A stretch of DNA of 64,000 nt, taken from IMG/VR virus record IMGVR_UViG_3300036766_001364, positions 1 through 64,000 of that record; one strand, 5' to 3'. Of the stretch, positions 14,961-62,143 are shown in pieces. The position numbers were made by a program, and so were the translations under genes. The stretch is from a virus. Lineage: Duplodnaviria > Heunggongvirae > Uroviricota > Caudoviricetes. The number at the start of each line of letters is the position of its first letter. Position 1 is the first letter of the stretch. The notes under the pieces are model-generated. The model saw only the letters and a program-made list of their open reading frames with translations. It did no database searches and had not been told where the DNA came from.

Positions 14961-15119
14961 CTGCCGCTGACAAGGGCGATGTTCAGGCGATCTCGATCGG
15001 CAGCCAGACGCTGTGGGGCAGGGTCGCAGCGATCGGCCTCATAGGGGGCGAGCGGTACTACTGGATGGTGGACAAGAACTCCGTGTCAACGATGCCGGCG
15101 TGCGTGGTGGAAGCGTGAA
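14958..15119 (+). CDS. Possible small ORF (53 aa, TTG start)
   Basis: GC3-rich frame after the 14960 stop; weak support. Confidence 0.2.
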
Positions 15120-15290
15120 GACTCTCTCGTTTGGACGCGTTCATCTTGGCGTCTCGACCCAGCTCATGCTCGGCGTGGCTTGGTTCGACTCCTCGCTCGA
15201 GCTGAGCGTTGGCCCGTTCTTCGTGCTCGTGCTCTTCTGGAAAATAAAGAGCGACGGCGCCCACGGCGCTGTCGAGACAGCGGGCCCCAG

Positions 15291-45218: not shown

Positions 45219-46504
45219 CGGTCCACATCGGCGAGGCCAGCCCAGAGGAGGTCGAGCTGTACGTCCTCTCGTCGCTTCGGACGCCCGAGGCCGTCGCGCG
45301 CGCCGCCGACGCCGGCATAAACGACGAATCTTGGCAGGTCGACGACCACGCTGAGGCGTGGAAATACGTCCGTGAGCGCCTGCGCGGCGGCGGCGAGATG
45401 CCGAGCGTCGCAGACGTCGAGGCCGCGTGCGGCATCGCGCTCATCAGGGACGTCACGGACGAAGACACGTTCCTCTCAGAGCTAGTCAAGCGGACGATCG
45501 AGCGCCAGGCGACGCGTCGCATCTTGGAGGGGGTCGAAGGGCTGCGCGACGACCCGCGAGCGGCGGTGGCGAAGCTCATCGGCGACCTGTCTGAGATCTC
45601 GGCCTCGACGACGGCGCATTCGGCCGTGTACGACGGATCGATCCAGAGCCGGCTCGACTTGATGCGCGAACGGACCGATCGGAAGGCCAGAGGGGAAGTG
45701 ATCGGCATACGCACTGGGCTGCGCGTGCTCGACGACGCCGGCTACACTTTTCGCCCGGGCGTGCTCGTCTGCCTCCAGGGGCCCATGAACGTCGGAAAAT
45801 CGGGGCTCCTGCTCTGGTTCTGCGCTCGCGCGTACCACCACGACCGGGCGCGCATACTGTTCCTCACGCCCGAGTCGACGATCAACGACATCCACGACCG
45901 GCTCGATCCCATGCTCGCGCGCTTCAGGGGGTACGAGCTGTCGAACCACGACCTCCGCATGGGCACGGTCGACATGGACCTGTATTCGCAGTACGTCGCG
46001 GACGTCGCGCTCGACGGGCGGAACGACTGGATCACGCGCGACTCGGGCGACTCGGGCGTGTTCAGCGTCGGCGAGATCATCCAGCTCGCTCGCGAGCACA
46101 GGCCAGACATCATCGCGATCGACGGCGTGCACCTGATCAGCGGAGAGGGTCGCACGTGGGAGCGCATCAAGGACGCTGCGGAGATGCTCAAGGGGCTCGC
46201 CCAGAGCATGGGACTCGTCGTCATCGGCGGGACGCAGGTCACGCGCGAGGCCATGCTCTCAGACGACCCGGCCGAGCTCGGACAATCGGCGTACGGCCTC
46301 GCCTTCTTAGAGGCGTCGAACATGGTCATCAGCCTCGCGACGAAGCGCGGAGACTCGATGCAGCGCACCTGGAAGCTGGTCAAGAACAGGGACGGACGCC
46401 AGATCTTGGCGCGACAGTACCTCAGGTTCGACATCGACGCGGGGAACCTCGGCGACGTCCAGATCAACGTCGACGGGTCCACCGGGATCGTGGGGTTCGA
46501 TTGA
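45215..46504 (+). CDS. DnaB-like replicative helicase (RecA-fold C-terminal domain)
   Basis: Walker A GVLVCLQGPMNVGKSGLLLWF, Walker B DIIAIDGVHLI, GLVVIGGTQVTRE; TTG at 45215 after GAGGAG. Confidence 0.8.
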   Translation: MTVHIGEASPEEVELYVLSSLRTPEAVARAADAGINDESWQVDDHAEAWKYVRERLRGGGEMPSVADVEAACGIALIRDVTDEDTFLSELVKRTIERQATRRILEGVEGLRDDPRAAVAKLIGDLSEISASTTAHSAVYDGSIQSRLDLMRERTDRKARGEVIGIRTGLRVLDDAGYTFRPGVLVCLQGPMNVGKSGLLLWFCARAYHHDRARILFLTPESTINDIHDRLDPMLARFRGYELSNHDLRMGTVDMDLYSQYVADVALDGRNDWITRDSGDSGVFSVGEIIQLAREHRPDIIAIDGVHLISGEGRTWERIKDAAEMLKGLAQSMGLVVIGGTQVTREAMLSDDPAELGQSAYGLAFLEASNMVISLATKRGDSMQRTWKLVKNRDGRQILARQYLRFDIDAGNLGDVQINVDGSTGIVGFD

Positions 46505-47058
46505 GCCAGACCGAGCTGCCGACGACAGAGGGCGGTTTCAGGACGGTCGTGGCGGACCCCCCGTGGCCGTACAACGACAGGCTCCCCGGAAAGGGCCGAG
46601 GCGCAGCGAAGCACTACGGACTCATGGACGTCGACGCGATATCGGCGCTGCCGGTCGCGGACGTCGCCGCAGACGCCGCGCATCTCTACGTGTGGACGAC
46701 GAACGGTTTCCTCGGCGAAGCGATCGCGGTGTGTCGCGCTTGGGGCTTCGACCCGAAGACGGTGCTCACGTGGGTCAAGGTGTCGCGCGCCGGCAACGTG
46801 CGCATCGGCATGGGGAGGACCTTCAGGAACGCCACAGAACACGCGGTATTCGGCGTGCGCGGAAAGCTGCCGGCGCTGCGACGCGACGTCCCCAACGTCT
46901 TCTTCGCCGAGCGCACAGAACACTCGCGCAAGCCCGATCGGTTCTATGAGATAGTCCGCTCGATGTCCCCCGGACCGTACCTAGAACTGTTCGCGCGGCG
47001 ACACGAGCCCGACTTCGTCGCTTGGGGCGATGAAGCGCCGCGATCGGACCTCGGCTGA
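46501..47058 (+). CDS. MT-A70-like DNA N6-adenine (or N4-cytosine) methyltransferase
   Basis: VVADPPWPY catalytic motif with the downstream WTTNGFLGEA...WGF...LTWVK core; TTG at 46501; track ORF 46156 is extended upstream by GC bias. Confidence 0.75.
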   Translation: MSQTELPTTEGGFRTVVADPPWPYNDRLPGKGRGAAKHYGLMDVDAISALPVADVAADAAHLYVWTTNGFLGEAIAVCRAWGFDPKTVLTWVKVSRAGNVRIGMGRTFRNATEHAVFGVRGKLPALRRDVPNVFFAERTEHSRKPDRFYEIVRSMSPGPYLELFARRHEPDFVAWGDEAPRSDLG

Positions 47059-48017
47059 TGCAGTACGGGTCGGAAGTCGTCCTGATGGTCATCGAAGAAC
47101 TCGGCATCGCCGAGGTCCGTCCCGACGCATTCGGGTGGATGGACGCCTGCTGCCCGCTCCACGAAGAGAACAATCCGTCGTTCTCCATCAACCTCAACCA
47201 CGGCGGCTGGGTCTGCCGTTCGAGCTGCGGGACTGGCGGCCTGGAGTCGCTCGTCGCCGGGGCTACGGGAGAGCCGACCAGGGACGTGGCGCGACGCCTT
47301 CGCAACAGGATGCCGATGGACTCCTCGACCATCGAGCGACTCTTGGGCCGCACGGAAGGGGTCGAGATCGATTCTGCTGGGGAGCCGCTTTTCTACGAGA
47401 GGAACAGGGTCCCAAAATACATGGTCGACCGCGGGTTCGACGTCGACACTCTTAAGCGGTGGCAGGTCGGCTACGACGCAGAGAGCGATTCGGCTGTGAT
47501 GCCCGTGCGCTTAGACGGAAAGCTCGTCGGGCTGATCAGGCGCCTGGTCGATCCCGGAGACGGTCCAAAATACCTCTATACGCGCGGCATGGCGAAGGAT
47601 CAGGTCCTGTTCGGCGAATGGATGATCGGGCCGGACGTCAGAGACGTCATCGTCGTAGAGGGCCCGCTCGACGCGATGTGGCTCGACCAGCACGGGCTCC
47701 CCGCCGTGGCCATCCTGGGATCGGCGATGAGCGATCAGCAGGCCGCGATGCTCAAGAAGCGGTTCTGGGGGGCCGTCTTGGCGTTCGACGCAGATTACGC
47801 CGGAAGGCGCGCGACCAAGCTCGTGGCCGAGAAGCTCGGGCGGATGAGGCTGAGCGTGGCGGCGCTTCCAGACGGCCGAAAGGACGTCCAGGAATGTTCA
47901 GAAATTGAGCTGAAGACGATGTTTTCATCAGTCTCGGACGTGTGGTATGATCGCCTGCGCTCGAGACGCCGCGGTCGTCGAGAAGTGGATCGATGGGCCC
48001 GGCCAGCGGCGTCATGA
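47058..48017 (+). CDS. DnaG-like DNA primase (zinc-binding domain plus TOPRIM)
   Basis: CCPLHEENNPSFSIN...WVCRSSCG; TOPRIM VIVVEGPLDAMWL ... AFDADYAGRRA. Confidence 0.8.
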   Translation: MQYGSEVVLMVIEELGIAEVRPDAFGWMDACCPLHEENNPSFSINLNHGGWVCRSSCGTGGLESLVAGATGEPTRDVARRLRNRMPMDSSTIERLLGRTEGVEIDSAGEPLFYERNRVPKYMVDRGFDVDTLKRWQVGYDAESDSAVMPVRLDGKLVGLIRRLVDPGDGPKYLYTRGMAKDQVLFGEWMIGPDVRDVIVVEGPLDAMWLDQHGLPAVAILGSAMSDQQAAMLKKRFWGAVLAFDADYAGRRATKLVAEKLGRMRLSVAALPDGRKDVQECSEIELKTMFSSVSDVWYDRLRSRRRGRREVDRWARPAAS

Positions 48018-48047
48018 CGACAGCTTAACGCGTGGGGATGGAAGAGC

Positions 48048-48800
48048 ATGGATGCATCGGATAACGGTCGCCTCGAGAGCGTCGCAGGACTGTCAGCGGC
48101 CCAGATACGCGGACTTAGCGACGACGAGTTCCTCAGGCTGATGCACCCGCTGATGATCAAGTTCGCCCATCGGTCATACATCCCCGGATACGAATTCGAC
48201 GACAAGATGCAGGAGCTCGCGATCGTCCTGTTGCGGTGCAAGAAGCAATATGCGCCCGACGACCCGAGCAAGCTCGGTCACGGCGGGAAGCCGTCGGGCT
48301 TTATGAACTATACGATCAGGGCCGTGCGCAATTTCCTAGGCAAGCTCGACGAGGCCGGCAAGCGCGGAAGCTTCGTGGCGAGCCACATGGAGTGCAAGGC
48401 GTGCGGCAACGTCGTCATCGCGCGGCGCAAGGACACGTGTTCCTTCTGTAGCGGCCGACGCTGGCAGCTCGTGCGCGTCTCTCCCGCCTCGGTGGACGCG
48501 CTCAAGGAAGCCCTCGTCCCGTGGGAACCGATGTCCATGGATGACTACCCGATCGAGATCGAGGACCTCGTGGACAGGGTCCTGGCGCTCTTGCCCGCGG
48601 CGCAGCGCGACTCGGCCGTCGGCTACTTTTACGGGCACGCGTCGCTCACGGCGCCGCTCAGGCGATCGATCACGGAAGCGATCATTTCTCATCCCGGTAT
48701 CCTCATGGGTGGCCCATTTGATGCGATTCGAAACGACGCAGACGTTGAGGGCCGGGAGCACTCAGAGAGATGCCTTCAGGTGGATTCGGCAGAGGTCTAG
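48048..48800 (+). CDS. Sigma-70-like factor (region-2-like) with an inserted CxxC...CxxC zinc ribbon
   Basis: FLRLMHPLMIKFAHRSYIPGYEFDDKMQELAIVLLRCKKQYAPD resembles sigma region 2; CKACGN...CSFCSG. Confidence 0.45.
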   Translation: MDASDNGRLESVAGLSAAQIRGLSDDEFLRLMHPLMIKFAHRSYIPGYEFDDKMQELAIVLLRCKKQYAPDDPSKLGHGGKPSGFMNYTIRAVRNFLGKLDEAGKRGSFVASHMECKACGNVVIARRKDTCSFCSGRRWQLVRVSPASVDALKEALVPWEPMSMDDYPIEIEDLVDRVLALLPAAQRDSAVGYFYGHASLTAPLRRSITEAIISHPGILMGGPFDAIRNDADVEGREHSERCLQVDSAEV

Positions 48801-49600
48801 CATTCCTCAAGTCCCAGCAGGACAAGATGCCCAAGGGCTGGGGCCAGCGCACGAACAAGCTCTGGCTGAGGACGAACGAGACGGCGCAGTTCTATTTTCT
48901 GGTGGAATACGACCAGCTCACGAACCTGTTCCTCCACGTGATCGAGAAGCCGCGCGGCGGCGGGAAGAACCCGATCAAGCTTGACGTCCTGTGCACGCGA
49001 AGGGACTACGACGACGATTCGTCGACGTGCCCGATATGCGTCGAACAGGAGCGCGGCCCGATGCTCCGCATCGTCACCCCCGTCTGGGTGAAGCAGATCA
49101 TCCATCCCAACAACGTTCCCGGGTCGAAGTGGCGCCAGATCAACACGCGCGACGGGGCGACGGGCGAGCAGAAGGCCATGTTCGCCGAGTCGATCGAGGA
49201 CGTCATGCTGTGGAACATCCGTCCCAAGGTGGCGGACCAGCTCATCTCCTACTTGAGCACGGGTGGAGACGACGTGAACCCGACGCCGGTGGACACGATC
49301 CTCGACCGTGGGTTCCGCGTCCGCATCCTCGGCGAGGGGCAGCAGCGCAACGATGTCTTCTCGCACGAGCACGTCCCCGGCGTCCCCGACGCCGTGCTCG
49401 ACGCTCGCAAGAACGCGCGCGACATCGACGAGTGGATGGCGGCCGAATTCACGGACGAGATGCCCAAGGCGACGGCCGCGGGCGGCGCTAAGAAGGCCGC
49501 CGCGTCGGCCGGTCAGACCGTGAGCTACGCGACCGGCCCAGACACCGACGCCGACGCCGACGAAGCCGCGTCGGACGATGAGGAGTTCAACTTTGACTGA
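48770..49600 (+). CDS. T4 gp32-like single-stranded DNA-binding protein with a zinc site and an acidic C-terminal tail
   Basis: H...CTRRDYDDDSSTCPICV (compare gp32 C-x9-C-x2-C with DYD); tail DADADEAASDDEEFNFD; alternative start at 48827. Confidence 0.6.
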   Translation: MPSGGFGRGLAFLKSQQDKMPKGWGQRTNKLWLRTNETAQFYFLVEYDQLTNLFLHVIEKPRGGGKNPIKLDVLCTRRDYDDDSSTCPICVEQERGPMLRIVTPVWVKQIIHPNNVPGSKWRQINTRDGATGEQKAMFAESIEDVMLWNIRPKVADQLISYLSTGGDDVNPTPVDTILDRGFRVRILGEGQQRNDVFSHEHVPGVPDAVLDARKNARDIDEWMAAEFTDEMPKATAAGGAKKAAASAGQTVSYATGPDTDADADEAASDDEEFNFD

Positions 49601-49946
49601 TGAGGCGGGCCGTTCTCTTACGGTCGAACTCGGCCTCACGATCCAGTGGGGCGAGATGAACTTCATAAAGCCGTGCATCACGATCTCGATCGACCCGGAC
49701 GGGGACGTCGAGGCTCAGTTGGACCGCGGGCTCGCCGCTGCTGACGTGGCGTTCGCGCGCATCGACGGCCACATCGAGAACGTGATCGCCGACCTCATCG
49801 CGCCGAACGCGGGGCAGCCGGGGTTCAACGAGCGCGTCGAGAAGATGGAGAAGGCGCTAGAGATCGCTCGGAAGAACATCAAGACGATCAAGGAAAAGAT
49901 CGACGAACTGATCGCCGCGCCGCAGCGCGGGGCCGGCGTGACGTGA
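49578..49946 (+). CDS. Hypothetical protein (122 aa)
   Basis: ORF in track. Confidence 0.35.
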   Translation: MRSSTLTDEAGRSLTVELGLTIQWGEMNFIKPCITISIDPDGDVEAQLDRGLAAADVAFARIDGHIENVIADLIAPNAGQPGFNERVEKMEKALEIARKNIKTIKEKIDELIAAPQRGAGVT

Positions 49947-51049
49947 CAGCGAAGGCCGATCGGAAGGCGCCGATCCAGCCCCGAGCCGCGGCCGGCCGGA
50001 GCGTCGACCTCATCGGACCGTCAGACGGGATGCTCACGCTCGACGACCTGGCCGACCTGCGGAAGTCTGTCGAGAAGGACCTCGGCGCGCGCATCTATTT
50101 CGGCAACGACGAGCGGTTGAAGCTCAGGAAGCTCACCCTCGGGATCGCGCCGATAGACAGGGTGCTCGCCGGCGGGTTCGCCTTCGATCGGATGTCGCTG
50201 ATCATCGGCGAGTTCTCGGCGGGCAAGACGCTGCTCGCGCTGTTCGCCCTCAAGGCGGCGATCGAGCTGGGCGTGTCGTGCGCGTACATCGACGGAGAGA
50301 AGACGTGGACCCCCGAATGGTCTGAGAGCCTCGGCGTTGACACGTCGAAGGTCCTCGTCGTGAGGCCCCGCTCGGGAGAGGACGCGTTCAACACGGCCCT
50401 GACGCTCGTGAAGCGGCGCGTCGGTGTGCTGATCATCGATTCTCTCGCGTCGCTCAGGCCGAAGACCGAGATCGAGGGGGACGAGAAAGAGATATTCGAC
50501 CGCCAGCACGTGGCCGTGCACGCTCGCCTCATCAACCGCGGGATCGAGGACCTCGAGCAGGTCAATGACGGGACGCTCATCATCGCGATCAACCAGCTCA
50601 GGTCTGGCGTCAACGCGTACGGCAACCCCGAGACGCTGCCGGGTGGAAAGGCGCAGGGGTTCTACGCGTGGCAGCTGATCCGCGTGAGGCGCACCGCGTT
50701 CATCGAGGAGGGCGTCGGGGCCAAGAAGAAGAAGATCGGCTACAAGCTGCTGATCAGGGTGGAGAAGAGCAAGCAGTCAGAGCCGTATCGCGAAGTCGAG
50801 GTGTCATACTACTACACCGGCCAGATCGACGAGCTCATGGGCATCATCGAGATGTGCATCGAGGCCGGCGTCATCAGGCAGGAGGGCACCTATTACTTCA
50901 TCGATGACGTGGTCGACGAGGCGACGGGAGAGCTGAGCCAGCTCAAGATCTGGGGTCGACCGCGCCTGCTCGAGGCGCTCAAGGCTTCAGAGGCGCTCCA
51001 GGAGCTCATCGTCAAGCGCGTCGAATCAATGCCATCGATCGAGATCTGA
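49943..51049 (+). CDS. RecA/UvsX/RadA-family recombinase ATPase
   Basis: Walker A LIIGEFSAGKTLLAL; Walker B VLIIDSLAS; overall RecA-fold layout. Confidence 0.75.
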   Translation: MTAKADRKAPIQPRAAAGRSVDLIGPSDGMLTLDDLADLRKSVEKDLGARIYFGNDERLKLRKLTLGIAPIDRVLAGGFAFDRMSLIIGEFSAGKTLLALFALKAAIELGVSCAYIDGEKTWTPEWSESLGVDTSKVLVVRPRSGEDAFNTALTLVKRRVGVLIIDSLASLRPKTEIEGDEKEIFDRQHVAVHARLINRGIEDLEQVNDGTLIIAINQLRSGVNAYGNPETLPGGKAQGFYAWQLIRVRRTAFIEEGVGAKKKKIGYKLLIRVEKSKQSEPYREVEVSYYYTGQIDELMGIIEMCIEAGVIRQEGTYYFIDDVVDEATGELSQLKIWGRPRLLEALKASEALQELIVKRVESMPSIEI

Positions 51050-51050
51050 G

Positions 51051-51425
51051 ATGCCGCAGTGGGATCGACCGGTCGAAGACACGACGGGGACGCGCGGTCA
51101 CCGCGCGCTCCACGACGCTATCGTGGCGGTGGGGTTCGACGTCGAGGACGAGCACGCCGTGGGCCGATATTCGATCGATTGTTACGTGCGCGAAGCGCAC
51201 CTCGGCTTTGAGTTTGACGGCCCCAAGCACGGCTGGAGGAGCGCCAAGAAGCGCGATTCAGAACGCGACCTGTGGATCCGTGAGAACGGCGGGATACCGA
51301 TCATGCGCGTGACCGATAGAGACGTCTCACGGCGGAGCGAGCTGGCCGGTAGGATCCGACAGTTCATCATCGACAATGAGCACGACATCGCCGACAGGAG
51401 GGCCCAAGGATGGGCGCTGGTATAG
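51051..51425 (+). CDS. DUF559 / Vsr-like (PD-(D/E)xK) endonuclease-domain protein
   Basis: YSIDCYVREAHLGFEFDGPKHGW...RDLWIRENGGIPIMRV. Confidence 0.55.
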   Translation: MPQWDRPVEDTTGTRGHRALHDAIVAVGFDVEDEHAVGRYSIDCYVREAHLGFEFDGPKHGWRSAKKRDSERDLWIRENGGIPIMRVTDRDVSRRSELAGRIRQFIIDNEHDIADRRAQGWALV

Positions 51426-51793
51426 CGGACAACCTCCAGCAGATCATGGACGCGCAGGGACGCCTCCAGGAGCGCATGCTCCCGAAGTGGGTCGCGATGG
51501 GCGAAGCGCTCGGCCTGGACTACATGTCGCTCTACCTCAAGGAGAACTGCGTCATGCTGGTTGACGAAGCGCTCGAGGCGATGCACGAGACGCCGTGGAA
51601 GTTCCACAAGAATGACTTCGGACGAGCGATGCTTGACGGCGAGCGCGACCGCTATCTCCATGAGACGATCGACTGCCTCCATTTCGTGGTGAACATGCTC
51701 ATCTTCGCGGGCGTCACGTCTGCCGACGAGGTCTTGGCGCTCTATATGGAAAAGAACGAAATCAATCACGATCGCCAGGATCGGGGGTACTGA
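51410..51793 (+). CDS. MazG-like / dimeric-dUTPase-like all-alpha NTP pyrophosphohydrolase (candidate dCTPase/dUTPase, like T4 gp56)
   Basis: Alpha-helical protein with VDEALEAMHETPWKFHK...LHETIDCLHF acidic motifs; assignment from memory. Confidence 0.45.
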   Translation: MGAGIADNLQQIMDAQGRLQERMLPKWVAMGEALGLDYMSLYLKENCVMLVDEALEAMHETPWKFHKNDFGRAMLDGERDRYLHETIDCLHFVVNMLIFAGVTSADEVLALYMEKNEINHDRQDRGY

Positions 51794-51833
51794 GACGCCA
51801 CAGCTCCAGCCGAGGCAGACCCATAGCGCGATC

Positions 51834-52241
51834 GTGTGGATGCTCTCGGGCATGAGCGGGGTGTCGCGCGAGACGGTGCACGAGAAGTTCCAGGCGTTTC
51901 TGCAAGAGATATATGACAACCCAGACTTCAGGAAGAAGAAGGACGGATCGAAGATCAATTTCACGACGTTCAGGGGGAACGTCCACGACGCGTTCAGGAT
52001 GATCGAGACGGTGATCTACGAGCTGGACACGGCGAACGGCGCCGTCCTGAAGGCCATGCACGAGGGATACTTCGGCGGCGGGAATCTGAAGTCGATCAGG
52101 GAGAAGGTCGTGAGACTGGTCCGCGAACGGAAGCGCATCCCGATGCGAGCGAAGCGCGAGGGGATCAGAGTCGACCAGAAGCACAGGGGCGCGATCATCA
52201 CCGATCCCGCCGCAGCCGAAGCTCGACCGAGAGCAAGCTGA
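51834..52241 (+). CDS. Hypothetical protein (135 aa)
   Basis: ORF in track. Confidence 0.4.
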   Translation: MWMLSGMSGVSRETVHEKFQAFLQEIYDNPDFRKKKDGSKINFTTFRGNVHDAFRMIETVIYELDTANGAVLKAMHEGYFGGGNLKSIREKVVRLVRERKRIPMRAKREGIRVDQKHRGAIITDPAAAEARPRAS

Positions 52242-52699
52242 TGGCGGCAGATGACATCAATCGGTTCGAGGGAGAGTTCGAGTTCCTGTCGAACTTTTCG
52301 ACGTGTCGGATCGAATTCCGTGGACGGACGTTTCCGACCGTGGAGCACGCGTACCAGTCGGCTAAGACCGACGAACACCACTGGATCGACGCGATCCGGC
52401 AGGCGCCGACGCCGGCCGAGGCCAAGAAGCTCGGGCGGAAATCTCCCGTCCGGTCCGACTGGGAAGAAGTGAAGGAGGGCGCGATGATCGGTCTCCTCCG
52501 CGAGAAGTTCACGAACGAAATGCTGAGGTCGCTCCTCGTCGCTACCGGAGATCGGAAGCTCATCGAGGGAAACTGGTGGGGCGACCGATACTGGGGAGTC
52601 CATCGCGGCGAGGGCCTGAACCGGCTCGGCGAACTGCTGATGCAGGTCAGGAAAGAGATCGCGTCCGTGTATCCTCAGCCTGAGGAGTTTGTGTACTAG
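52241..52699 (+). CDS. NADAR (YbiA-like, DUF1768) domain protein
   Basis: FEGEFEFLSNFS...FPTVEHAYQSAKT...KKLGRK...REKF...LLVATGDRKLIEGNWWGDRYWG. Confidence 0.8.
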   Translation: MAADDINRFEGEFEFLSNFSTCRIEFRGRTFPTVEHAYQSAKTDEHHWIDAIRQAPTPAEAKKLGRKSPVRSDWEEVKEGAMIGLLREKFTNEMLRSLLVATGDRKLIEGNWWGDRYWGVHRGEGLNRLGELLMQVRKEIASVYPQPEEFVY

Positions 52700-53815
52700 A
52701 TGAACATCGCGCTCTTCAGGATCATGAAAAGCTTCAACTCTGGCCGCCAGGCCCTCGGAATGGGCGGGGGCGAGGAGTTCTCGACGATCGCGCGCGAGAT
52801 GGCGCGACGCGGACACCGCGTGACGGTCTACTGTGAGGTAGCGCGCACGTCCCGCGACGACCTCCTCGAGTGGGGCCTCAGGCTGAAGCCCGACGCCGCG
52901 CGCCTCGACGACGACGAGAACTGCCTGATCGTGGACAACGGGGCCGGGATCAATCTCCTGTGGGCGCCGAACCAGCTCGTCTTACCGCGGAGACTCGCTC
53001 GGTTCTACCAGCTCGTGTCGACGTGCGACGTACCGATCTTCTACTCGCAGAGCGACCCGGCGGTCAGCATGGCGATCGTCACCGAGATCGACGACTGGCT
53101 CAAGCTCCCGTCGAAGGTGGGCGTGCTCGAGTATATCACCGTACCAGAACGGGCGCTCGACGGCAAGCAGGTCATCGTGATGTTCACGCAGCATTGGCCA
53201 GACGAGTTCGCCACCAAGATCAAGTCGCGCTACGTGCAGATGGCGAAACACGGCATGAAGTACGAGCACCTCGACCTCTCGCCGACGGCGCTCATCGGCC
53301 GCGAGCGCCAGAACCCAAAGCAAGACCCCGAATACGACATCGTCTACGTGGGGAATTCACGCCGCCGAAAACGGCTGATCCCATACGTCAATCGTCCCGA
53401 CGCGCATGTGTGGGGCCAGTGGTCAGACCGCGTCCGCGCAGATCAGGTGCCGCTCGCCACGATGCACGGGAAGGTCGGCGTGCACCTGGTCCCCGGTGTG
53501 TACCACGACGGGCGCATGACGTTCGTCGTGCGCGACGACCACGAGCTCGGGTTCAACGCGCGGCCGACGCGCATATTCGAGTCAGTGCAGGCGGGATGCC
53601 CGACGTGGGTCGACGCGAAGACGTTCCGGGAGGGGTCTGAGCCGTATTGGCCGTGGCTGATCGAGCACGCCGACATCGATGCGCGGCTCGACGAGATGCG
53701 CGATCCGAATCGGCGTCGGAGCCTGGTCGGCCTGCAGCAGGACTTGGTCTCGTCTGTCGACCCGTTGCAGCCGATCGACGATCTTGAGGCCATCCTCGAG
53801 AAGCACCTGCGGTGA
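52700..53815 (+). CDS. GT-B fold glycosyltransferase (GT4-like); candidate DNA (hydroxymethylcytosine) glycosyltransferase
   Basis: N-terminal MNIALFRIMKSF..GGGEEFSTIAREMARRGHRVTVYC; C-terminal RIFESVQAGCPTWV (E...G.P motif). Confidence 0.6.
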   Translation: MNIALFRIMKSFNSGRQALGMGGGEEFSTIAREMARRGHRVTVYCEVARTSRDDLLEWGLRLKPDAARLDDDENCLIVDNGAGINLLWAPNQLVLPRRLARFYQLVSTCDVPIFYSQSDPAVSMAIVTEIDDWLKLPSKVGVLEYITVPERALDGKQVIVMFTQHWPDEFATKIKSRYVQMAKHGMKYEHLDLSPTALIGRERQNPKQDPEYDIVYVGNSRRRKRLIPYVNRPDAHVWGQWSDRVRADQVPLATMHGKVGVHLVPGVYHDGRMTFVVRDDHELGFNARPTRIFESVQAGCPTWVDAKTFREGSEPYWPWLIEHADIDARLDEMRDPNRRRSLVGLQQDLVSSVDPLQPIDDLEAILEKHLR

Positions 53816-54243
53816 GGCCGCCGCGAAAGCAGGCGTATTTCGACACCGCAGCGGTGTGGGCGCAGCAGTCCACCTGCAATCGGAAGCACGTGGGCTGCGT
53901 CCTGGTCAGTCCAGATGGGTTCGTGATCGCGACCGGGTACAACGGGTCTGAGCGCGGCCGACCGCACTGCGTGGATGTCGGGTGCTACGTTGTCGAGGGG
54001 CACTGCGCGCGGACGATCCACGCCGAGAAGAACGCCCTGCTGCAGGCCGCTTTTCGGGGCGAATCGACGCGGGGGGCGGGCTGCTACAGCACCATGAAAC
54101 CGTGCTTCCGATGTCAGATGGAACTGCGCCAAGCCGGGGTCGCCGAGTTCTTCTGGGTCGAAGACTACGACGACTATCCCGACAACCCGGGCGACATGTT
54201 CGACCTCGACGGGACGATTCGCGAGAGCTCAGAAACAGGATAA
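53812..54243 (+). CDS. dCMP deaminase (cytidine/deoxycytidylate deaminase family)
   Basis: HAEKNALLQAA ... PCFRCQMEL zinc-binding motifs; GTG start overlapping the upstream stop. Confidence 0.85.
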   Translation: MRPPRKQAYFDTAAVWAQQSTCNRKHVGCVLVSPDGFVIATGYNGSERGRPHCVDVGCYVVEGHCARTIHAEKNALLQAAFRGESTRGAGCYSTMKPCFRCQMELRQAGVAEFFWVEDYDDYPDNPGDMFDLDGTIRESSETG

Positions 54244-54282
54244 TATCCGGTCCATACGGTAGACGAGGGTGAATGTCAACGC

Positions 54283-55089
54283 ATGACAGCGCGATCGATG
54301 TCGATTGAGACTAGAGAGAAGATCAGCATTGCGACTCGGGGCCGTCCAAAGGGACCGATGCCGGTTGAGACGCGCGCGAAAATTGGTCAATCGCTCATTG
54401 GAAAGCCATGGGACACTGAGCGTAAACAGCGATATACGTCGCCGATGTTCGGTAAAACGCATACTGCCGAGTCGCGCGCCAAGATAAAGGCCGCCCGGGC
54501 ACTGCAGGTTATGACGCCGATGAGCGAAGACACACGAGAAAAATTAAGGGTCGCCAAGATCGGGTGGAATCCATCGGTTGAGACACGTAAAAAGATTGGT
54601 GATGCGCATCGCGGCAAGGCGGCCTGGAACAAGGGAATTGCATGCCCTGATGACGTGAAAGAGAAACTTCGTCAGGCGAATCTCGGCAAGAAGGCGTCTT
54701 TCGAGACTCGTGAAAAGCTCAGTCTGTTCTTCAGGAATGTGCCACGAACGCCAGAGTGGTGTCAGCGCATAGCTGAAGGTAAGCGACGGCACATTGTTGC
54801 TGGGACAGATTGCGCGGGCGCGTGCTGTCGCCCTAAATGGAGCAATACGCTCCTCGAACAGGCCCTCGCTAGATTGCTTGGCGATTTTCCGCACGTCGTT
54901 CAGTGGAAACGTTTTGGACATTTCACGGTCGACGCATATCTGCCTCATCCATATCATTTAGCGTTTGAAGCGGACGGCTGGCATCATCAGTTCAGGATAG
55001 AGCGCGATCTTGAGAGAGATCAATGGTTGCTTAAAAATCATCAGTTGATCGTCATTCGCCTGACCACTGATGATTTGAAAGGAATATAA
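54283..55089 (+). CDS. Free-standing homing-endonuclease-like protein: about 7 N-terminal NUMOD3 repeats plus a C-terminal DUF559/Vsr-like nuclease domain
   Basis: Repeats ETREKIS / ETRAKIG / ESRAKIK / DTREKLR / ETRKKIG / DVKEKLR / ETREKLS; C-terminal FGHFTVDAYLPHPYHLAFEADGWHH...RIERDLERDQWLL. Confidence 0.65.
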   Translation: MTARSMSIETREKISIATRGRPKGPMPVETRAKIGQSLIGKPWDTERKQRYTSPMFGKTHTAESRAKIKAARALQVMTPMSEDTREKLRVAKIGWNPSVETRKKIGDAHRGKAAWNKGIACPDDVKEKLRQANLGKKASFETREKLSLFFRNVPRTPEWCQRIAEGKRRHIVAGTDCAGACCRPKWSNTLLEQALARLLGDFPHVVQWKRFGHFTVDAYLPHPYHLAFEADGWHHQFRIERDLERDQWLLKNHQLIVIRLTTDDLKGI

Positions 55090-57315
55090 GTGAACTCTCA
55101 GCCTACGGCCATTGGGGTTCACATATACTCTGGCGCCTTTGTTTTAGGATTCCGTGAAAAATTCAAGGTGCTTGGAAAGTGGGAGGAGCTCGACGCTGGC
55201 GCTGAGACATTCAGAATAAACTTGGGTCACGAGATCCCACAGATCATTTCACGACAGGGATTAGACGGTTGGCCGATCGATCAGCATCGCGGCCGTGTGA
55301 ACGTCGTGTTCGCGAACCCGCCGTGCTTTTCGGCGGACACTGTCGTTCTGACTGAGAACGGTTGGGAGAAGATCGGCAAGCTCGTGAAATCCAGATCCAC
55401 CGATAGGGTCTGGGCTATCGGCAGCGACGGCGCGATGGGTTTTCATCGCATCGACGGCTGGCACGACAATCCGTATACAGGCGATCTGTACGCCGTGTCG
55501 TTGAAACACGGCAGGGGCGGAAGTTGGGGGAAGCGACCCGCGATCGCGACGTATAACCATCGCTTTTTGACGACGCGCGGGTGGGTTCAGGCCGCGTCGC
55601 TTCAGCAGGATGATCTGGTGGCCACCGGTGAGATCGCTCCCAATGCGCGGCAGCGCGAGCTCATCGACGGCATGATGCTTGGAGACGCCACTATCAAGGC
55701 ACGACAAGCGCAGTTTGGCACGTCACAGACGTGTGAGGAGCTCGTCGCCATGAAACGCGATGCTCTGGGCGATCTCGTGTGTGGCGACGGTGTCGAACCG
55801 CGAGGGATGGGCGGAGACGGATATTTTCGCCGGCCGCTTCATGGCTTTTATTGCAAGACGTTGAACTGGGCGAAGGTCGAACGCGAGCGCTGGTACGGGG
55901 GCGACGGTCGGAAGATCGTGCCTGTCGACGTCCGATTGACCGACCTCGCTCTCGCCGTTTGGTTTATGGACGATGGCCACGGGATAGGTCAGAGATGGTC
56001 ACATCGCCCCGAGTATAAAACTCGGTATCACGGTCCTTGGCTGTCGATGGCTACCTGCAGTTTCGATGCGACGAGCCTTGAGATACTCACGCGCGGTCTG
56101 GAAGCGATCGGCATAACGGCGGTTCAACACCGGCGAAAGAGCGGCTACGTGGATCTCGAGATAAGGGGCGAATCGGCGATCGCGTTCATCGATCGTATCG
56201 GGCGGTTCGTGCCGCCATCGATGCGCTACAAGCTGCCCGACTGGGCTCCGGGGTTTGAACAGGACAACTGGCAGCTTGGCGCGTCGATCACCGGTTGGGA
56301 CAGTCCCGTGGTCGTGAATCGCGGTCCGGCGCCAGACAGTTTTAGAGCGTACTGTCTGGACGTTCCCGAAGCCCAGAATTTCGTGACGCGCGGCGGCGTC
56401 GTCCATAACTGTGCTATCTGGTCGACGATGGGGTCGCGGCTGGGCGAGAACGACCCGCGGATCGTGTTCACCAAGAACTGCGCAGAACTCGCAAAGCGGC
56501 TCGAACCGGATTTCTTCGTCATGGAGTCCGTCTGTAGAGCGTGGAGCCCGACAGGCGGCAGGCCGACCTACACGCGCATGGCGCAGGAATTTGGCGCTCT
56601 CGGGTACGCGACGACTATATTCATGACGAACACCATGCTCCACGGAGCTCCGCAGTCGCGCGAACGCTTTCACTTCATCGCGCATCGATACGCCATAGAC
56701 CTCCACGGGCCAGACATGCGAACGTTCAGGCCGGCGACCGTCAGAGACGCGATCGGAGACCTCGAAGAGAGCGCGGTGTCGACGGTCTCAGGGAGGGATC
56801 CGACGCTCGCGAACCATGTCTATCCCGTGCTCTCTCCGAGCGAGATGAACGTCGTGAAGCGCATGTGCCCGGGCGAGGGCTGGGACGTCGGCATCGGACG
56901 CTGCATCGAGGACGGCGTCCCGTTCCGCAAGTCCAGGTTCCTGGCCGGACGCATGGAATACGATCGGCCGTCGCGCACGATGGTCGACATCTCGTGTGTG
57001 TTCCATCCCGCGCGCGATCGCATCATTACGATGCGCGAGGGGGCGAGGCTCTGCGGGTACCCAGACTGGTTCAGGTTCTCGGACTCTCCGTCGAACCGCA
57101 CGTATGGGGCAGAGCACGTCGAGCTCACCCAGGCGGCCCTGCCGTTCATGGGCAGGTTCCTCGGAGACGAATTCGCGCGCGCCCTAGACAGGGCCGACGG
57201 CGTCCGACCGACGGCGTCCGCAGACGACATCAAGGTGGTGGACCTGAGGCCGCTCACGGCGCGGTTCGGGCCGCGTTCGCTCAGAGAGCTGCAGACCGAC
57301 GACACGGTAGCATGA
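55090..57315 (+). CDS. DNA (cytosine-5)-methyltransferase-like protein interrupted by an intein (extein about 379 aa)
   Basis: Extein motif IV FANPP|C-AIWSTMGSRLGENDPR (compare GPPCQAFSxxGKxKGxxDxR), ESV (ENV-like), HGAPQSRERFHFIA (motif VIII QxRxR); N-terminal IYSGAFVLGF is a degenerate motif I. Confidence 0.75.
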   Translation: MNSQPTAIGVHIYSGAFVLGFREKFKVLGKWEELDAGAETFRINLGHEIPQIISRQGLDGWPIDQHRGRVNVVFANPPCFSADTVVLTENGWEKIGKLVKSRSTDRVWAIGSDGAMGFHRIDGWHDNPYTGDLYAVSLKHGRGGSWGKRPAIATYNHRFLTTRGWVQAASLQQDDLVATGEIAPNARQRELIDGMMLGDATIKARQAQFGTSQTCEELVAMKRDALGDLVCGDGVEPRGMGGDGYFRRPLHGFYCKTLNWAKVERERWYGGDGRKIVPVDVRLTDLALAVWFMDDGHGIGQRWSHRPEYKTRYHGPWLSMATCSFDATSLEILTRGLEAIGITAVQHRRKSGYVDLEIRGESAIAFIDRIGRFVPPSMRYKLPDWAPGFEQDNWQLGASITGWDSPVVVNRGPAPDSFRAYCLDVPEAQNFVTRGGVVHNCAIWSTMGSRLGENDPRIVFTKNCAELAKRLEPDFFVMESVCRAWSPTGGRPTYTRMAQEFGALGYATTIFMTNTMLHGAPQSRERFHFIAHRYAIDLHGPDMRTFRPATVRDAIGDLEESAVSTVSGRDPTLANHVYPVLSPSEMNVVKRMCPGEGWDVGIGRCIEDGVPFRKSRFLAGRMEYDRPSRTMVDISCVFHPARDRIITMREGARLCGYPDWFRFSDSPSNRTYGAEHVELTQAALPFMGRFLGDEFARALDRADGVRPTASADDIKVVDLRPLTARFGPRSLRELQTDDTVA
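55324..56409 (+). mobile_element. Intein (362 aa) with a LAGLIDADG homing-endonuclease domain, inserted directly before the PC-motif catalytic Cys
   Basis: Block A CFSADTVVLTENG, block B ATYNHRF, two LAGLIDADG blocks LIDGMMLGDATI and AVWFMDDGHGIG, C-terminal VVHN followed by Cys+1. Confidence 0.75.
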
Positions 57316-57319
57316 TCGC

Positions 57320-58267
57320 ATGACAGATCCCTTCGTCGTCATAGAGGGCATAGATGGAGCGGGGAAATCTACGCTCGCCAGGGCTTTCGTCGCTCAAGGG
57401 ATGGCGTACGGACACTTTGGTCCACCCGACAGACCCGCGTACCGATTCTACTCAGAGATCTTTGACCGCCACCCACACCAGGCGACCGTCGTCGATCGGA
57501 TGCACGTCGGGAGCTTCGTGTATGGCACGATCTTTCGCGGGATGGACGAACTGACGCCCTACGAGCACTGGCTCATCGAGGGCCGGCTCATGGGCCGGAA
57601 CAGCGTCATGGTCTACGCGTGTCCCCCGGCGGTCGCCTCGGATCGCGCGCTCGACCGCGGTCCGCGCGACGCCGTTGAGGAGCTCTATGAGGACGCGAGC
57701 CGACGAGACGACGTGCGCCGGCTCTACGAACAGTACATGAGCAGCATGTCTGCATTGCCGATCTTCGCTTACGATTTCACGGCCGCTCCAGACGCGATGC
57801 AGCGCACTGTGTCTGAGGTGATGGCGACGCTCGCGTATTTCTCTGATGCGCCCCGCCCCGTGGCGTCGGCAGACCCATTTGGGAATGCCTATTCTCCACA
57901 GTACTGTCTCGTCGGCGCTGCGCCGAGTCGCTACCTGCACGGGGCGCTCGTCGCCGCTCGAATACGGTTGAATGCCACGTGCATCGTTGGGCGGCTGCCG
58001 GACGATTATGAACCGAGCGAGTTCTGGCTGTCGACAGTCTTCGTCGCGCTTGGCAGGAAGGCGCACGCGCAGCTCGATGAGATGGGAATCAAGCACGTCG
58101 CCGTGCCCCATCCCGGCCTCGTCGAGGCGGCGCATTACGCCGACATCGTCCGCTATGCGAAGGCGATCAGGGGCGATACAGACTTCCCGCTCGATCGCCC
58201 GACGAAGCGCGAAGAGCTCGCAGCGACCGCGTCTAGGCTCAGGAAGATCGGGCTTGTTCTGCCGTGA
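57320..58267 (+). CDS. P-loop deoxynucleoside monophosphate kinase (thymidylate-kinase-like; T4 gp1 analogue) with a C-terminal extension of about 110 aa
   Basis: VVIEGIDGAGKSTLARAF Walker A of the Tmk/dNMP kinase type. Confidence 0.7.
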   Translation: MTDPFVVIEGIDGAGKSTLARAFVAQGMAYGHFGPPDRPAYRFYSEIFDRHPHQATVVDRMHVGSFVYGTIFRGMDELTPYEHWLIEGRLMGRNSVMVYACPPAVASDRALDRGPRDAVEELYEDASRRDDVRRLYEQYMSSMSALPIFAYDFTAAPDAMQRTVSEVMATLAYFSDAPRPVASADPFGNAYSPQYCLVGAAPSRYLHGALVAARIRLNATCIVGRLPDDYEPSEFWLSTVFVALGRKAHAQLDEMGIKHVAVPHPGLVEAAHYADIVRYAKAIRGDTDFPLDRPTKREELAATASRLRKIGLVLP

Positions 58268-59109
58268 AGGTCTACAGGCTCGATGCCCTTGGCACGGGAT
58301 ACGCAGACCTCCTCAGAGACGTCGAGCAGAGCGGCGACATCGTGAGGCCGCGCGGGATGGAGGTCCGCGAGGTCAGGCCGCTCGTGCTCGAGATCTTAGA
58401 TCCGACGCGATCGCTCGTGAAGCGTCCGGGGATCAACCGCGCGCTGATGTGGATGGAGATCGCGCAGCTCATCGCGGGTGAATGGGACGAGGGGCTCATG
58501 CGCGCGATGTCCGCGCAGGCAGCCGTACTCATGTCCGCTCAGGGCGCGTACGGGCCGCGCACGGCGATGCAGCTCGAGCAGGCCGTCCTCGAGCTGGTCC
58601 ACGACGCGGACTCGCGTCGTGCGACTGTGATCGTGGCGCGCGAGAGCGACCTGTTGAAAGCGCGGGCCGGCGCGAATGAACAGCCGTGCACGCTGTCTTG
58701 GCAAGTTTTCGCGAGAGGCGGCAGGCTCGAGATGGTGGTCAGCATGCGCTCGTGGGACCTCGTCTGGGGGCTCGCAAACGACGTGCCGATGTTCACCATG
58801 ATCCAGCGATGTCTCGCGTGGGCGCTCGGCCTCGAAGTCGGGACGTACACCCATGTCGCGGGCAGCGGCCACGTCTATAGCCGCCACTACGGGCTCTGGG
58901 AGCGGGTGTCGCCGACGACCGAGCGGCTCGCGCTCGTGATTCCACGCGATCTGCCAAGCGGCTTCATGGCGCAGGACAGGTGGGTCGGCGTCGTCGCTGG
59001 AGCGATATCGGCTCTCAGGCTCGCGAGGGTCGGTAAGCTTGACGAGCTGCCCGCGCATTGGAGCCACGTCGCTCCCCTCTGGAAGAAGAAGCTGGAGAAT
59101 CATGGCTGA
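58264..59109 (+). CDS. ThyA-fold pyrimidine hydroxymethylase/methylase, predicted deoxycytidylate hydroxymethylase (T4 gp42-like)
   Basis: DSRRATVIVAR; catalytic QPCTLSWQ; MRSWDLVWGLANDVPMF aligns with E. coli [17 protein letters not shown] so that ThyA Asn177 becomes Asp, the cytosine-specificity determinant of gp42; LEVGTYTHVAGSGHVYSRHY. Confidence 0.75.
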   Translation: MKVYRLDALGTGYADLLRDVEQSGDIVRPRGMEVREVRPLVLEILDPTRSLVKRPGINRALMWMEIAQLIAGEWDEGLMRAMSAQAAVLMSAQGAYGPRTAMQLEQAVLELVHDADSRRATVIVARESDLLKARAGANEQPCTLSWQVFARGGRLEMVVSMRSWDLVWGLANDVPMFTMIQRCLAWALGLEVGTYTHVAGSGHVYSRHYGLWERVSPTTERLALVIPRDLPSGFMAQDRWVGVVAGAISALRLARVGKLDELPAHWSHVAPLWKKKLENHG

Positions 59110-60004
59110 CGCCGTGGCCGATCGCCGCATCGGGCTCGACAGGCTCCTCAGGCAGCTGAAGTCCAATGACTGGGTGTCGCGTGCGCTCGACGGGATCGGC
59201 GTCCAGCCGGAAGACGCGTGGGTCCCTCCCAAGCTCGAGATAAACCCGTCGGGGACGGGAGGGCCGTGCGCTCTCGACATCCAGTTCGGCATGCTCGGGC
59301 ACAGGACGCCGATCGCGCCCAAGAATCGACGGCGCATGGACAACGGGACGATGGCCCACCGGAGGTGGTCTGAGTACTTCGAACAGACCAATCTGCTCGT
59401 GGTCGCGTCCAAGAGGCTCAAGCAGGCGGGCGTCTGGAGCGGAGAGATCGATGTCATCGTGAAGAGCCCGGCGACGGGGTCGTTCCATGTCGGCGAGATC
59501 AAGACGACCAACTCGAACAGTTTCGGTCGACTCCCGCGGCAGGTCGCCGACCTCGACGCGATGGCCCTCGCGATGGCGGGGCACAACAAGGCCTACCTCT
59601 TCCAGCTTGCGCAGTACGTCGTCAAGTTCAAGCAGGCGTACTCAGCGCTGTCAGACGAAGCGTTCTTCCTGTTCGAGAACACCGATGACCAGGACTATCG
59701 CGTCCTGTGGCTGCGGATCGGCGCGAACCTCAAGCGCGACGCGTTCCTCAACGGCGAACTCGCGCGACAGGCCACGATCGATGGGCGAGTCATCGAGAGG
59801 CCGTTCGCCAAGGGATCGAGCACGTGCAAGCGTTGCTATCGCAGGAAGGTCTGCGACGACTATCACGCCGGGATCGGGGACGTCGTCCAGCGCGTCGAAG
59901 AAGCGATGTTCAAGGCGGGACAGCTTCCTCCGCCGAGCACGGTATGGACCGAGGGGTTCGACCGCGATCAGTCTGACGAATTCGACGAGGAGATCGCGTG
60001 GTGA
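59101..60004 (+). CDS. PD-(D/E)xK nuclease (RecB/Cas4-like) with a C-terminal Cys cluster
   Basis: IDVIVKSPATGSFHVGEIKTTN (D...E.K); C-terminal CKRCYRRKVCDDYH; ATG at 59101 after GGAG. Confidence 0.55.
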
Positions 60005-62126: not shown

Positions 62127-62143
62127 GGAGGGAGACTGCCGGC

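Follow-up and report, generated by a model that had tools for sequence, protein, structure and literature searches.

A predicted, highly divergent relative of T4 beta-glucosyltransferase and a stand-alone NADAR protein in the nucleotide-modification genes of a high-GC phage

We analysed a 64,000-nucleotide stretch of a Caudoviricetes record (IMG/VR IMGVR_UViG_3300036766_001364), referred to here as the window. The phage genome has 64% GC and carries replication genes of PolA, DnaB and DnaG type as well as a C5 cytosine DNA methyltransferase (C5-MTase); a megablast search of the region against 50,697 phage records returned no match. Two plus-strand ORFs in the ORF list fill exactly the interval in which the original prediction had placed a NADAR-domain protein (152 aa) and a glycosyltransferase (371 aa), both within one co-directional phage gene string (Table 1). 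The two genes are real, and their ORFs show strong codon-position bias of the coding type (GC3 of 0.80 for NADAR and 0.87 for the glycosyltransferase, versus GC2 of 0.41). The NADAR TAG is followed without a gap by the glycosyltransferase ATG, the stop of the glycosyltransferase overlaps the start of the dCMP deaminase by 4 nt, and the junction upstream of NADAR is a TGATG at 52239-52243. Tight gene packing is the rule across the whole phage genome. NADAR had been described as sitting between a pyrophosphatase and a glycosyltransferase; the glycosyltransferase does adjoin it, but an orphan ORF separates it from the pyrophosphatase. This orphan ORF had no match in Pfam, NCBIfam or PADLOC and a weak one in PHROGs (phrog_25626, 5.8e-4), and its sole match among 5.8 bn proteins was itself. 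It is unlike the 147-aa ORF found at the same position in a related lineage (L004, below). By eye, its sequence appears mostly helical. We considered it as a YarT-like ART partner of NADAR and set this aside, finding neither homologues nor family matches.

Table 1. Genes of the nucleotide-modification region, in window coordinates
Feature	Coordinates	Strand	Remarks
dNTP pyrophosphatase, all-alpha (dUTPase_2/MazG-like), related to T4 gp56 dCTPase/dUTPase	51410..51793	+	PF08761, phrog_173
Orphan ORF, 135 aa, function unknown	51834..52241	+	Stop overlaps NADAR start
NADAR-domain protein, stand-alone, YbiA-type active site	52241..52699	+	PF08719, phrog_1017
Glycosyltransferase, GT-B, predicted divergent T4 beta-glucosyltransferase-like (GT63-like), 371 aa	52700..53815	+	
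dCMP deaminase, T4 cd analogue	53812..54243	+	PF00383 5e-19, phrog_174 1.9e-40
NUMOD3/DUF559 homing endonuclease	54283..55089	+	PF07460 3.9e-17
C5 cytosine DNA methyltransferase with LAGLIDADG intein	55090..57315	+	PF00145, PF03161, Intein_splicing
P-loop nucleotide kinase-like (N-terminal) plus extra C-terminal domain	57320..58267	+	phrog_761
ThyA homologue with 5-hydroxymethyl-dCMP synthase (T4 gp42/MilA-type) active-site signature	58264..59109	+	MilA and gp42 alignments

The surroundings had been called a nucleotide-modification island, a description borne out by the dUTPase_2 pyrophosphatase, the dCMP deaminase, the C5-MTase, the kinase and the ThyA homologue. The pyrophosphatase matched PF08761 (2e-13) and phrog_173 (1.6e-15), and BLASTP aligned it to T4 gp56 with 47% identity over the C-terminal 43 aa (E 2e-10). 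For the ThyA homologue, the best PDB match was MilA (9e-16); its identity to T4 gp42 is 32%, over the core only (E 1e-12), and its overall score is closer to MilA. When aligned with E. coli ThyA and gp42, it retains C146 and D169 and carries L143E and N177D. Of the published diagnostics for these enzymes, C146 is catalytic, N177D marks a dCMP substrate, L143D/E a hydroxymethyl product, and D169N the 5hodCMP synthases (PMC13326640). At all four positions the ThyA homologue has the residue of the 5-hydroxymethyl-dCMP synthase branch, to which its sequence would assign it. The catalytic Cys, L143E, D169 and N177D are shared with gp42/MilA-type hydroxymethylases, and the same product is predicted. 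A flavin-dependent 5-hydroxy-dCMP synthase was rejected because D169 is retained (criteria of PMC13326640), and a dUMP hydroxymethylase producing hmU was rejected on account of N177D. The kinase matched phrog_761 ‘thymidylate kinase’ at 2.5e-12; its Pfam and NCBIfam dTMP-kinase matches fell below cut-off and spanned the P-loop only, and its best PDB match, YorR, was not significant (E 0.1). In DLP3/RB69, the glycosyltransferase and ThyA homologues are flanked by YorR-like kinases (PMC13326640, Table 1), and we infer that the P-loop protein is an hm-dCMP kinase. The C5-MTase matched PF00145 (2.4e-19), PF03161 (9.6e-11) and Intein_splicing (9e-6); no TET/5mYOX partner for it was found among the 20 proteins scanned from 46156 to 62830. 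The homing endonuclease is a mobile insertion outside the pathway. Local GC dips to 0.56 over this gene.

Three other metagenomic phage lineages, L001, L004 and L011, carry a syntenic modification module. The order dUTPase_2, glycosyltransferase, C5-MTase recurs in all four lineages, the window phage included, with glycosyltransferase identities of 27-53%. Throughout the three relatives, the pyrophosphatase lies directly upstream of the glycosyltransferase slot and an intein-free C5-MTase homologue occupies the same position as in the window; the homing endonuclease is absent from all three. A dCMP deaminase likewise follows the glycosyltransferase module in L001. The kinase and a ThyA homologue lie downstream in L004 and L011, the L001 contig stopping earlier, and the ThyA homologues of L004, L011 and the window phage all combine N177D with L143D/E. 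Beside the glycosyltransferase is a variable slot, where the relatives have sugar-tailoring or extra glycosyltransferase genes: an oxidoreductase plus aminotransferase, a second glycosyltransferase, an ADDT or a GT-A. NADAR is absent from the glycosyltransferase neighbourhood in each of the three. The L004 and L011 modules also include a Nuc_deoxyrib_tr N-glycosidase-like gene, and L004 encodes an ADDT/aGPT-Pplase3 gene, a type typical of hmU hypermodification.

The glycosyltransferase had been labelled GT4-like, with no similarity to either T4 enzyme, a-gt or b-gt. The Pfam GT4 families scored below cut-off (Glyco_trans_4_4, 21 bits against 29.7 and in the N-terminal part only; Glyco_transf_4, 17 bits against 28.5) and the C-terminal Glycos_transf_1 did not match, so the label does not hold, even though the enzyme does belong to the GT-B glycosyltransferases. 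It had no match in PHROGs, NCBIfam or PADLOC, and none by tblastn against the 50,697 phage records; an IMG/VR pattern scan using the family alignment did not find relatives. In a sequence-only comparison with the PDB, the family profile had no significant match (top, CalG4, E 0.17). PF09198, the Pfam family of T4 beta-glucosyltransferase (BGT; b-gt; CAZy GT63; PDB 1c3j), did not match the protein directly at E<=0.01; it was matched by 2 of 37 distant relatives (best E 1.3e-6), and Glyco_trans_1_2 by 13. The absence of similarity was upheld at the sequence level for a-gt (GT72), to which we detected no sequence-profile homology. It was overturned for b-gt by profile, structure and catalytic residues.

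The profile of the four close family members matched 130 proteins among 1.84 bn representatives, 42 of them BGT relatives by phmmer. Two bridging proteins, P0043 and P0057, matched both the family (4.4e-9 and 1.7e-7) and BGT (2.7e-27 and 1.5e-40). Compared with BGT by hhalign, the family aligned at full length (Prob 99.2, E 2.3e-19, 322 columns), and removal of all nine members with any BGT similarity left this almost unchanged (Prob 99.0, E 2.6e-18); the four close members alone gave a weak match in the C-terminal third (Prob 33, E 4.6e-4). Identity between the glycosyltransferase and BGT is only about 13-14%. BGT residues E22, D100, R191, R195, R269 and E272 nevertheless align with invariant family residues, the last five corresponding to D119, R221, R223, R291 and E294, which are invariant in 4/4 family members. 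From the BGT structures of Morera and Lariviere, we take Asp100 to be the catalytic base and Arg191, Arg195, Arg269 and Glu272 to bind UDP. An initial AF2 model from 4 sequences had only moderate confidence (pLDDT 68) and a poor C-domain, and was rebuilt with 37 sequences. The high-confidence model, whose underlying alignment included some BGT-like sequences, has a predicted GT-B fold, with BGT as its nearest solved structure by a wide margin. Taken on sequence and model, the protein appears to be a detectable remote homologue of BGT and a highly divergent member of its lineage, in a phage to which T4 is unrelated. Unlike BGT, its relatives have amino-sugar or extra glycosyltransferase genes nearby.

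We infer that the 371-aa protein is an inverting UDP-sugar:5-hmC-DNA glycosyltransferase. In the proposed pathway, the ThyA homologue would make 5-hydroxymethyl-dCMP, the adjacent kinase would phosphorylate it, the gp56-like pyrophosphatase would deplete competing dCTP, and hmC would be built into DNA at replication. The glycosyltransferase would then flip hmC from duplex DNA and move a sugar from a UDP-sugar onto the 5-CH2OH, by a putatively inverting mechanism in which D119 would act as general base, with the ribose contacted by E294 and the diphosphate by R221, R223 and R291. UDP-glucose is the probable donor, since no sugar-nucleotide genes are present, and the product may protect the phage DNA from restriction and CRISPR. 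The hm-dCMP synthase signature and the synteny of the module in three lineages make sugar transfer to hmC DNA well supported as a prediction; the glycosyltransferase had been put forward as the candidate for transfer to hydroxymethylated bases, and the evidence is stronger than was then supposed. A conserved C5-MTase beside a supposedly full replacement of C by hmC is a point against this pathway. The L004 ADDT/aGPT-Pplase3 gene suggests that the acceptor chemistry of this phage group may be more complex than hmC only.

Phage GT-B DNA glycosyltransferases that resemble T4 beta-GT in structure and are linked to ThyS have been documented in metaviromes (Pyle et al., 10.1101/2023.12.21.572611). 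These enzymes (subclass III GT53/66/94 and ThyS-linked GT-B hits), to which we liken ours by description, glycosylate 5hmC, and ThyS and dCMP deaminase genes often adjoin them. The characterised ones act post-replicatively, after C5-MT and 5mYOX/TET, whereas the window phage would use a ThyA-type, pre-replicative route.

An acceptor other than 5-hmC DNA appears quite unlikely. The enzyme might instead act on 5-hmU DNA, add a second sugar to an already glycosylated base, or build cell-envelope glycans as GT4-type enzymes do. The sub-threshold GT4 N-domain matches and the 13 distant relatives with Glyco_trans_1_2 would fit such a role, as would the L004 gene known from hmU pathways and a dCMP deaminase that provides dUMP. 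However, the ThyA homologues in three of the lineages carry the dCMP hydroxymethylase signature, BGT is by far the closest structure with its catalytic and UDP residues conserved, and the gene lies within a replication/nucleotide module with no envelope genes nearby. Since no other glycosyltransferase in the slot is constant, the enzyme is also most likely base-proximal.

The neighbouring 152-aa protein has the NADAR (YbiA/DUF1768) domain attributed to it, matching PF08719 at E 5.6e-26 and 92.2 bits (gathering cut-off 35.1) over profile positions 9-162 of 163, and phrog_1017 at 5.7e-43. All three motifs quoted in its favour, EFLSNFS, VEHAYQSAKT and NWWGDRYWG, are present in the translation. 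Residues E35, K42, E109, D115 and W118 align with catalytic or ADPr-binding residues, and the catalytic E35/K42/E109 are intact. E35 and K42 lie seven residues apart in VEHAYQSAK, the catalytic Glu/Lys spacing of PnNADAR (E43/K50) and AdfN (E36/K43), in which a third acidic residue lies near the distal ribose (PMC11543638, PMC11257639); E109 (LIEGN) aligns with PnNADAR E125. PF08010, the T4 gp30.3 clade, gave no match at E<=0.01, and E109 stands where that clade has His. The sequence places the protein outside this clade, in the branch that includes Bas32: it is 47% identical (66/139, E 6e-28) to bas32_0066 of phage IrisVonRoten (Bas32), the only NADAR-like gene found within the 50 kb of Bas32 searched. 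The Bas32 protein is also stand-alone and about 150 aa long, has the same E...K and LIEGN.WGD.YWG motifs, and is likewise sited among nucleotide-metabolism genes; the DNA of the window phage is predicted to contain glycosylated hmC, whereas no DNA modification is known for Bas32.

Among solved structures, the best match to NADAR was E. coli YbiA (2b3w, 1.9e-23), with PnNADAR (8bau) at 1.5e-8. NADAR scores above the curated cut-off of TIGR02464, the family of riboflavin-intermediate N-glycosidases such as YbiA (88.3 bits, cut-off 73.7), and shares with YbiA the subfamily-defining glutamate, here E109. These features would suit, in place of a DNA de-ADP-ribosylase, a metabolic N-glycosidase of YbiA type that destroys reactive intermediates of the riboflavin pathway or some other ribosylated compound, be it a small molecule or a nucleotide. 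We regard this as unlikely. Riboflavin genes (ribA/ribD) are neither fused to NADAR nor nearby, its neighbours being the pyrophosphatase, the orphan ORF, the glycosyltransferase and the dCMP deaminase; the LexA/dinG operon context of YbiA is also lacking, and the ThyA homologue has the signature of a folate-type hydroxymethylase and not the flavin-dependent D169N. Riboflavin damage control is of no evident use to a phage. YbiA itself removes guanine-ADPr in vitro, as did all NADAR subtypes tested (PMC11125620), and the Bas32 NADAR protected phages against DarTG1 and neutralised DarT1, all phage NADARs tested countering DarTG1 (PMC11257639).

On this evidence, the anti-DarT-type role suggested in the original prediction is the best-supported reading: judged by sequence, NADAR is most likely a guanine-ADP-ribose DNA glycohydrolase serving counter-defence, apart from the modification chemistry. 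It would hydrolyse ADP-ribose off guanine in phage DNA, countering DNA ADP-ribosyltransferase defences of DarT1 or a similar type, with a guanine-specific DarT1-type system as the presumed target. In uninfected cells, neither YbiA nor T4 gp30.3 relieved the toxicity of DarT1 (PMC11125620); the in vivo specificity of a NADAR is therefore unreadable from sequence.

The alternative drawn from its placement, a part in base modification or its reversal, fared worse. A NADAR coupled to DNA modification could act on a base or sugar adduct, by trimming, reversing or proof-reading it, or could process a nucleotide precursor, as with MilB and the Nuc_deoxyrib_tr glycosidases that accompany hydroxymethylases. 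It is packed tightly upstream of the glycosyltransferase, in the slot that holds glycan-tailoring genes in relatives, two of which have a Nuc_deoxyrib_tr N-glycosidase-like gene in the module, and T4 AdfN is most effective in an hmC DNA context (PMC11257639). Such packing is genome-wide, however, and NADAR is missing from all three related modules. Its homologues are spread across 463 phage records and many hosts, and the nearest (55-60% identity) have unrelated phage neighbourhoods, with genes for RlaP, EndoVII, NUDIX, Ro60 and RNA ligase. Its placement therefore says little about function, and we hold a coupled role to be very improbable.

Considering both genes together, it is fairly probable that they have separate jobs, as a BGT-lineage hmC-DNA glycosyltransferase and an independent counter-defence NADAR, the latter acquired independently and lodged in what would be the variable slot of the module. 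A wider scenario is possible but doubtful. The window phage and its three metagenomic relatives may form an undescribed, non-Straboviridae high-GC lineage that converts C to 5-hmC before replication, with a constant, ancient beta-GT-like base-proximal enzyme and a hypervariable slot that diversifies the adduct. The window phage would then carry a plain hexose and L001 an amino sugar, while L004 would bear a disaccharide or an added amino acid and L011 additions of the GT-A kind. In place of such genes, the window phage would have acquired in this slot a NADAR specialised in removing ADP-ribose from glycosyl-hmC DNA, and the conserved C5-MTase would be a second, post-replicative layer.

Both proteins are additions to known kinds and not a new system. 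The NADAR gene matches a counter-defence role already in the literature, and is a caution that neighbouring positions in a string of phage genes say little about shared function. The glycosyltransferase would extend the BGT lineage, described as phage-confined and with its best-known members in T-even phages, to an unrelated group of high-GC phages, and the roughly 130 intermediates may serve as a sequence bridge for annotating BGT-like enzymes, to which neither Pfam nor PHROG now gives a label. In the related phages, the variable slot beside the enzyme may be a compact region in which to look for new chemistries of DNA glycans.

The predicted pairing of a NADAR gene with a glycosyltransferase gene at 52241-53815 was confirmed, as exactly two + strand ORFs occur there and fill the interval. 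In each, GC is strongly enriched at the third codon position (0.80 for NADAR, 0.87 for the glycosyltransferase), within a phage-like metagenomic contig of ~64% GC. Many window proteins are covered by PHROG families, and the replication module (PolA, DnaB, primase, RecA) is of phage type; among 50,697 deposited phage genomes, the region had no nucleotide match and the glycosyltransferase no protein match. No spacers separate the genes around the pair: the stop of an orphan 135-aa ORF overlaps the NADAR ATG (TGATG), the glycosyltransferase ATG directly follows the NADAR TAG, and the glycosyltransferase stop overlaps the dCMP deaminase start. Promoter- or terminator-like sites around the two genes were not above chance. 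The orphan ORF, translationally coupled to NADAR, has no family assignment and matched only itself among 5.8 billion proteins. GC drops locally to 0.56, against about 0.63, at a homing endonuclease gene between the dCMP deaminase and methyltransferase genes, and the window holds another small nuclease gene.

Coordinates of genes in the window and in three metagenomic phage lineages (L001, L004, L011) carrying relatives of its glycosyltransferase
Sequence	Feature	Position	Strand	Remark
Window	RtcB-type RNA ligase	15180-16532		phrog_1075, E 6e-108
Window	MT-A70-family (N6-adenine) methyltransferase	46156-47058		between DnaB and primase
Window	small nuclease	51051-51425		DUF559/MTES_1575
Window	orphan ORF	51834-52241		135 aa
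Window	NADAR	52241-52699	+	152-aa ORF
Window	glycosyltransferase	52700-53815	+	371-aa ORF
Window	homing endonuclease	54283-55089		NUMOD3 + DUF559-type
Window	C5 cytosine DNA methyltransferase	55090-57315		
Window	P-loop kinase with C-terminal domain	57320-58267		
Window	ThyA homologue	58264-59109		
L001	glycosyltransferase, oxidoreductase, aminotransferase	10001-12985		also L002, L003
L004	further genes	11260-13499 and 15582-17005		
L004	P-loop kinase with C-terminal domain	14575-15585		
L011	further genes	7100-7951 and 10324-11588		
L011	P-loop kinase with C-terminal domain	11851-12912		

Pfam gave the glycosyltransferase only sub-threshold matches to GT4 N-domains, PHROGs, NCBIfam and PADLOC gave none, and its close family comprises four clusters among 5.8 billion proteins (identities 100, 53, 45 and 30%). 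A profile of these four sequences recovered 130 proteins from 1.84 billion representatives, 42 of them clear relatives of T4 beta-glucosyltransferase (BGT, b-gt) by phmmer. In profile comparison, a 37-sequence alignment matched BGT end to end over 322 columns (Prob 99.2%, E 2.3e-19), and at Prob 99.0% (E 2.6e-18) once all nine members with any BGT similarity were removed; the four-sequence alignment matched the C-terminal part only, in unchanged register (Prob 33, E 4.6e-4). T4 a-gt was not detectably homologous to the 37-sequence alignment (Prob 6%). BGT Asp100, the catalytic base in the Morera/Lariviere structures, aligns with D119; Arg191, Arg195 and Arg269, which hold the UDP phosphates there, with R221, R223 and R291; Glu272, which binds the ribose, with E294; and Glu22 with E26. 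None of these six window positions varies within the family. The original prediction saw no resemblance to b-gt; identity of only 13% makes this easy to understand, yet the profile and structure comparisons contradict it. Taking homology and predicted action on hmC in DNA jointly, we consider it highly probable that this protein is a T4 beta-GT-like DNA glycosyltransferase.

The ThyA homologue best matched MilA (9e-16) and T4 gp42 (1e-12); an alignment to E. coli ThyA shows C146 and D169 retained and the substitutions L143E and N177D. N177D denotes a dCMP substrate, L143D/E a hydroxymethyl product, and D169N the flavin-dependent 5-hydroxy-dCMP synthases (PMC13326640). Flavin-type D169N is absent here, and the four residues therefore form an hm-dCMP synthase signature. 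The 127-aa dUTPase_2 protein resembles T4 gp56. The remaining members of this T4-like precursor set are the dCMP deaminase and the P-loop kinase; T4 itself has uvsX, a homing endonuclease gene, b-gt and gene 42 side by side. The P-loop protein (dTMP-kinase/YorR-like) has an additional conserved C-terminal domain of ~150 aa, with VPHP(G/Q) as its terminal motif. By eye this domain is like uracil-DNA-glycosylase-superfamily proteins, and it might provide the kinase with a fused module for base recognition. The C5-methyltransferase is interrupted by a LAGLIDADG intein inserted exactly before the motif IV catalytic Cys (FANPP/CFSADTV...VVHN/CAIWSTMG), and its predicted spliced sequence matches the intein-less L004 homologue (FANPPCAPWSPAG). 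Each of the four related lineages keeps a methyltransferase at this position, even though the cluster has the look of a pre-replicative hmC pathway; no TET/5mYOX-like partner was found among the 20 proteins scanned (46156-62830). Counting the MT-A70 enzyme, there are therefore at least two phage-encoded DNA methyltransferases besides the hmC/glycosylation module.

The NADAR domain call proved solid, with catalytic E35, K42 and E109 in place; a homologue is encoded by 463 deposited phage genomes from many hosts. A role in base modification, proposed from the gene's placement, is the least supported reading: NADAR is present in the window phage only, being missing from the L001, L004 and L011 modules, and the proteins most similar to it (55-60% identity) are encoded on other phage-like contigs in unrelated gene surroundings. 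The original interpretation is partly supported: its reading of the glycosyltransferase as a candidate DNA-hmC enzyme gains support, that of NADAR as part of the pathway does not. Its other proposal, counter-defence against DarT-type ADP-ribosylation, is favoured. The protein shares 47% identity (E 6e-28) with bas32_0066 from phage IrisVonRoten (Bas32), whose NADAR rescued phages from DarTG1 and neutralised DarT1 (PMC11257639), and all NADAR subtypes tested hydrolysed guanine-ADP-ribose in vitro (PMC11125620, PMC11543638). The main rival, a YbiA-type N-glycosidase of riboflavin intermediates, has a passed TIGR02464 match behind it and no contextual support; with moderate confidence, we regard a stand-alone counter-defence gene as most likely. 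T4, an hmC phage also carrying a NADAR (AdfN), is an apt parallel, the window protein belonging to a different branch because it has no PF08010 match and Glu rather than His. The RtcB-type RNA ligase is likely an additional counter-defence or RNA-repair accessory gene.

The order RecA, dUTPase_2, a variable slot with the BGT-like glycosyltransferase, and C5-methyltransferase is the same in the window and the three other lineages. Downstream, L004 and L011 share with the window the kinase and then the ThyA(N177D) homologue, a position that the L001 contig stops short of. The slot holds the orphan ORF, NADAR, glycosyltransferase, dCMP deaminase and homing endonuclease in the window; the glycosyltransferase (53% identical), a GFO/IDH/MocA oxidoreductase, a DegT/DnrJ/EryC1 aminotransferase and dCMP deaminase in L001; a 147-aa ORF, the glycosyltransferase, a second one and ADDT/aGPT-Pplase3 in L004; and a TAGT-like GT-A and the glycosyltransferase in L011, with a second GT-A paralogue, also TAGT-like, just downstream of the C5-methyltransferase. 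ADDT/aGPT-Pplase3 is known from thymidine hypermodification; the ThyA homologues of L004 and L011 nonetheless bear the dCMP (N177D) signature. Both modules also contain, elsewhere, a Nuc_deoxyrib_tr N-glycosidase-like gene and DUF6899. The usual products of such an oxidoreductase and aminotransferase pair are 3- or 4-amino sugars, suggesting that the L001 relative carries an amino-hexose on its hmC DNA. Sugar-tailoring enzymes beside the glycosyltransferase in relatives support the idea that DNA is decorated with sugar. A published metavirome catalogue (10.1101/2023.12.21.572611) already includes GT-B enzymes that resemble T4 beta-GT and are linked to ThyS and dCMP deaminase, so the window glycosyltransferase is a very divergent addition to a known kind.
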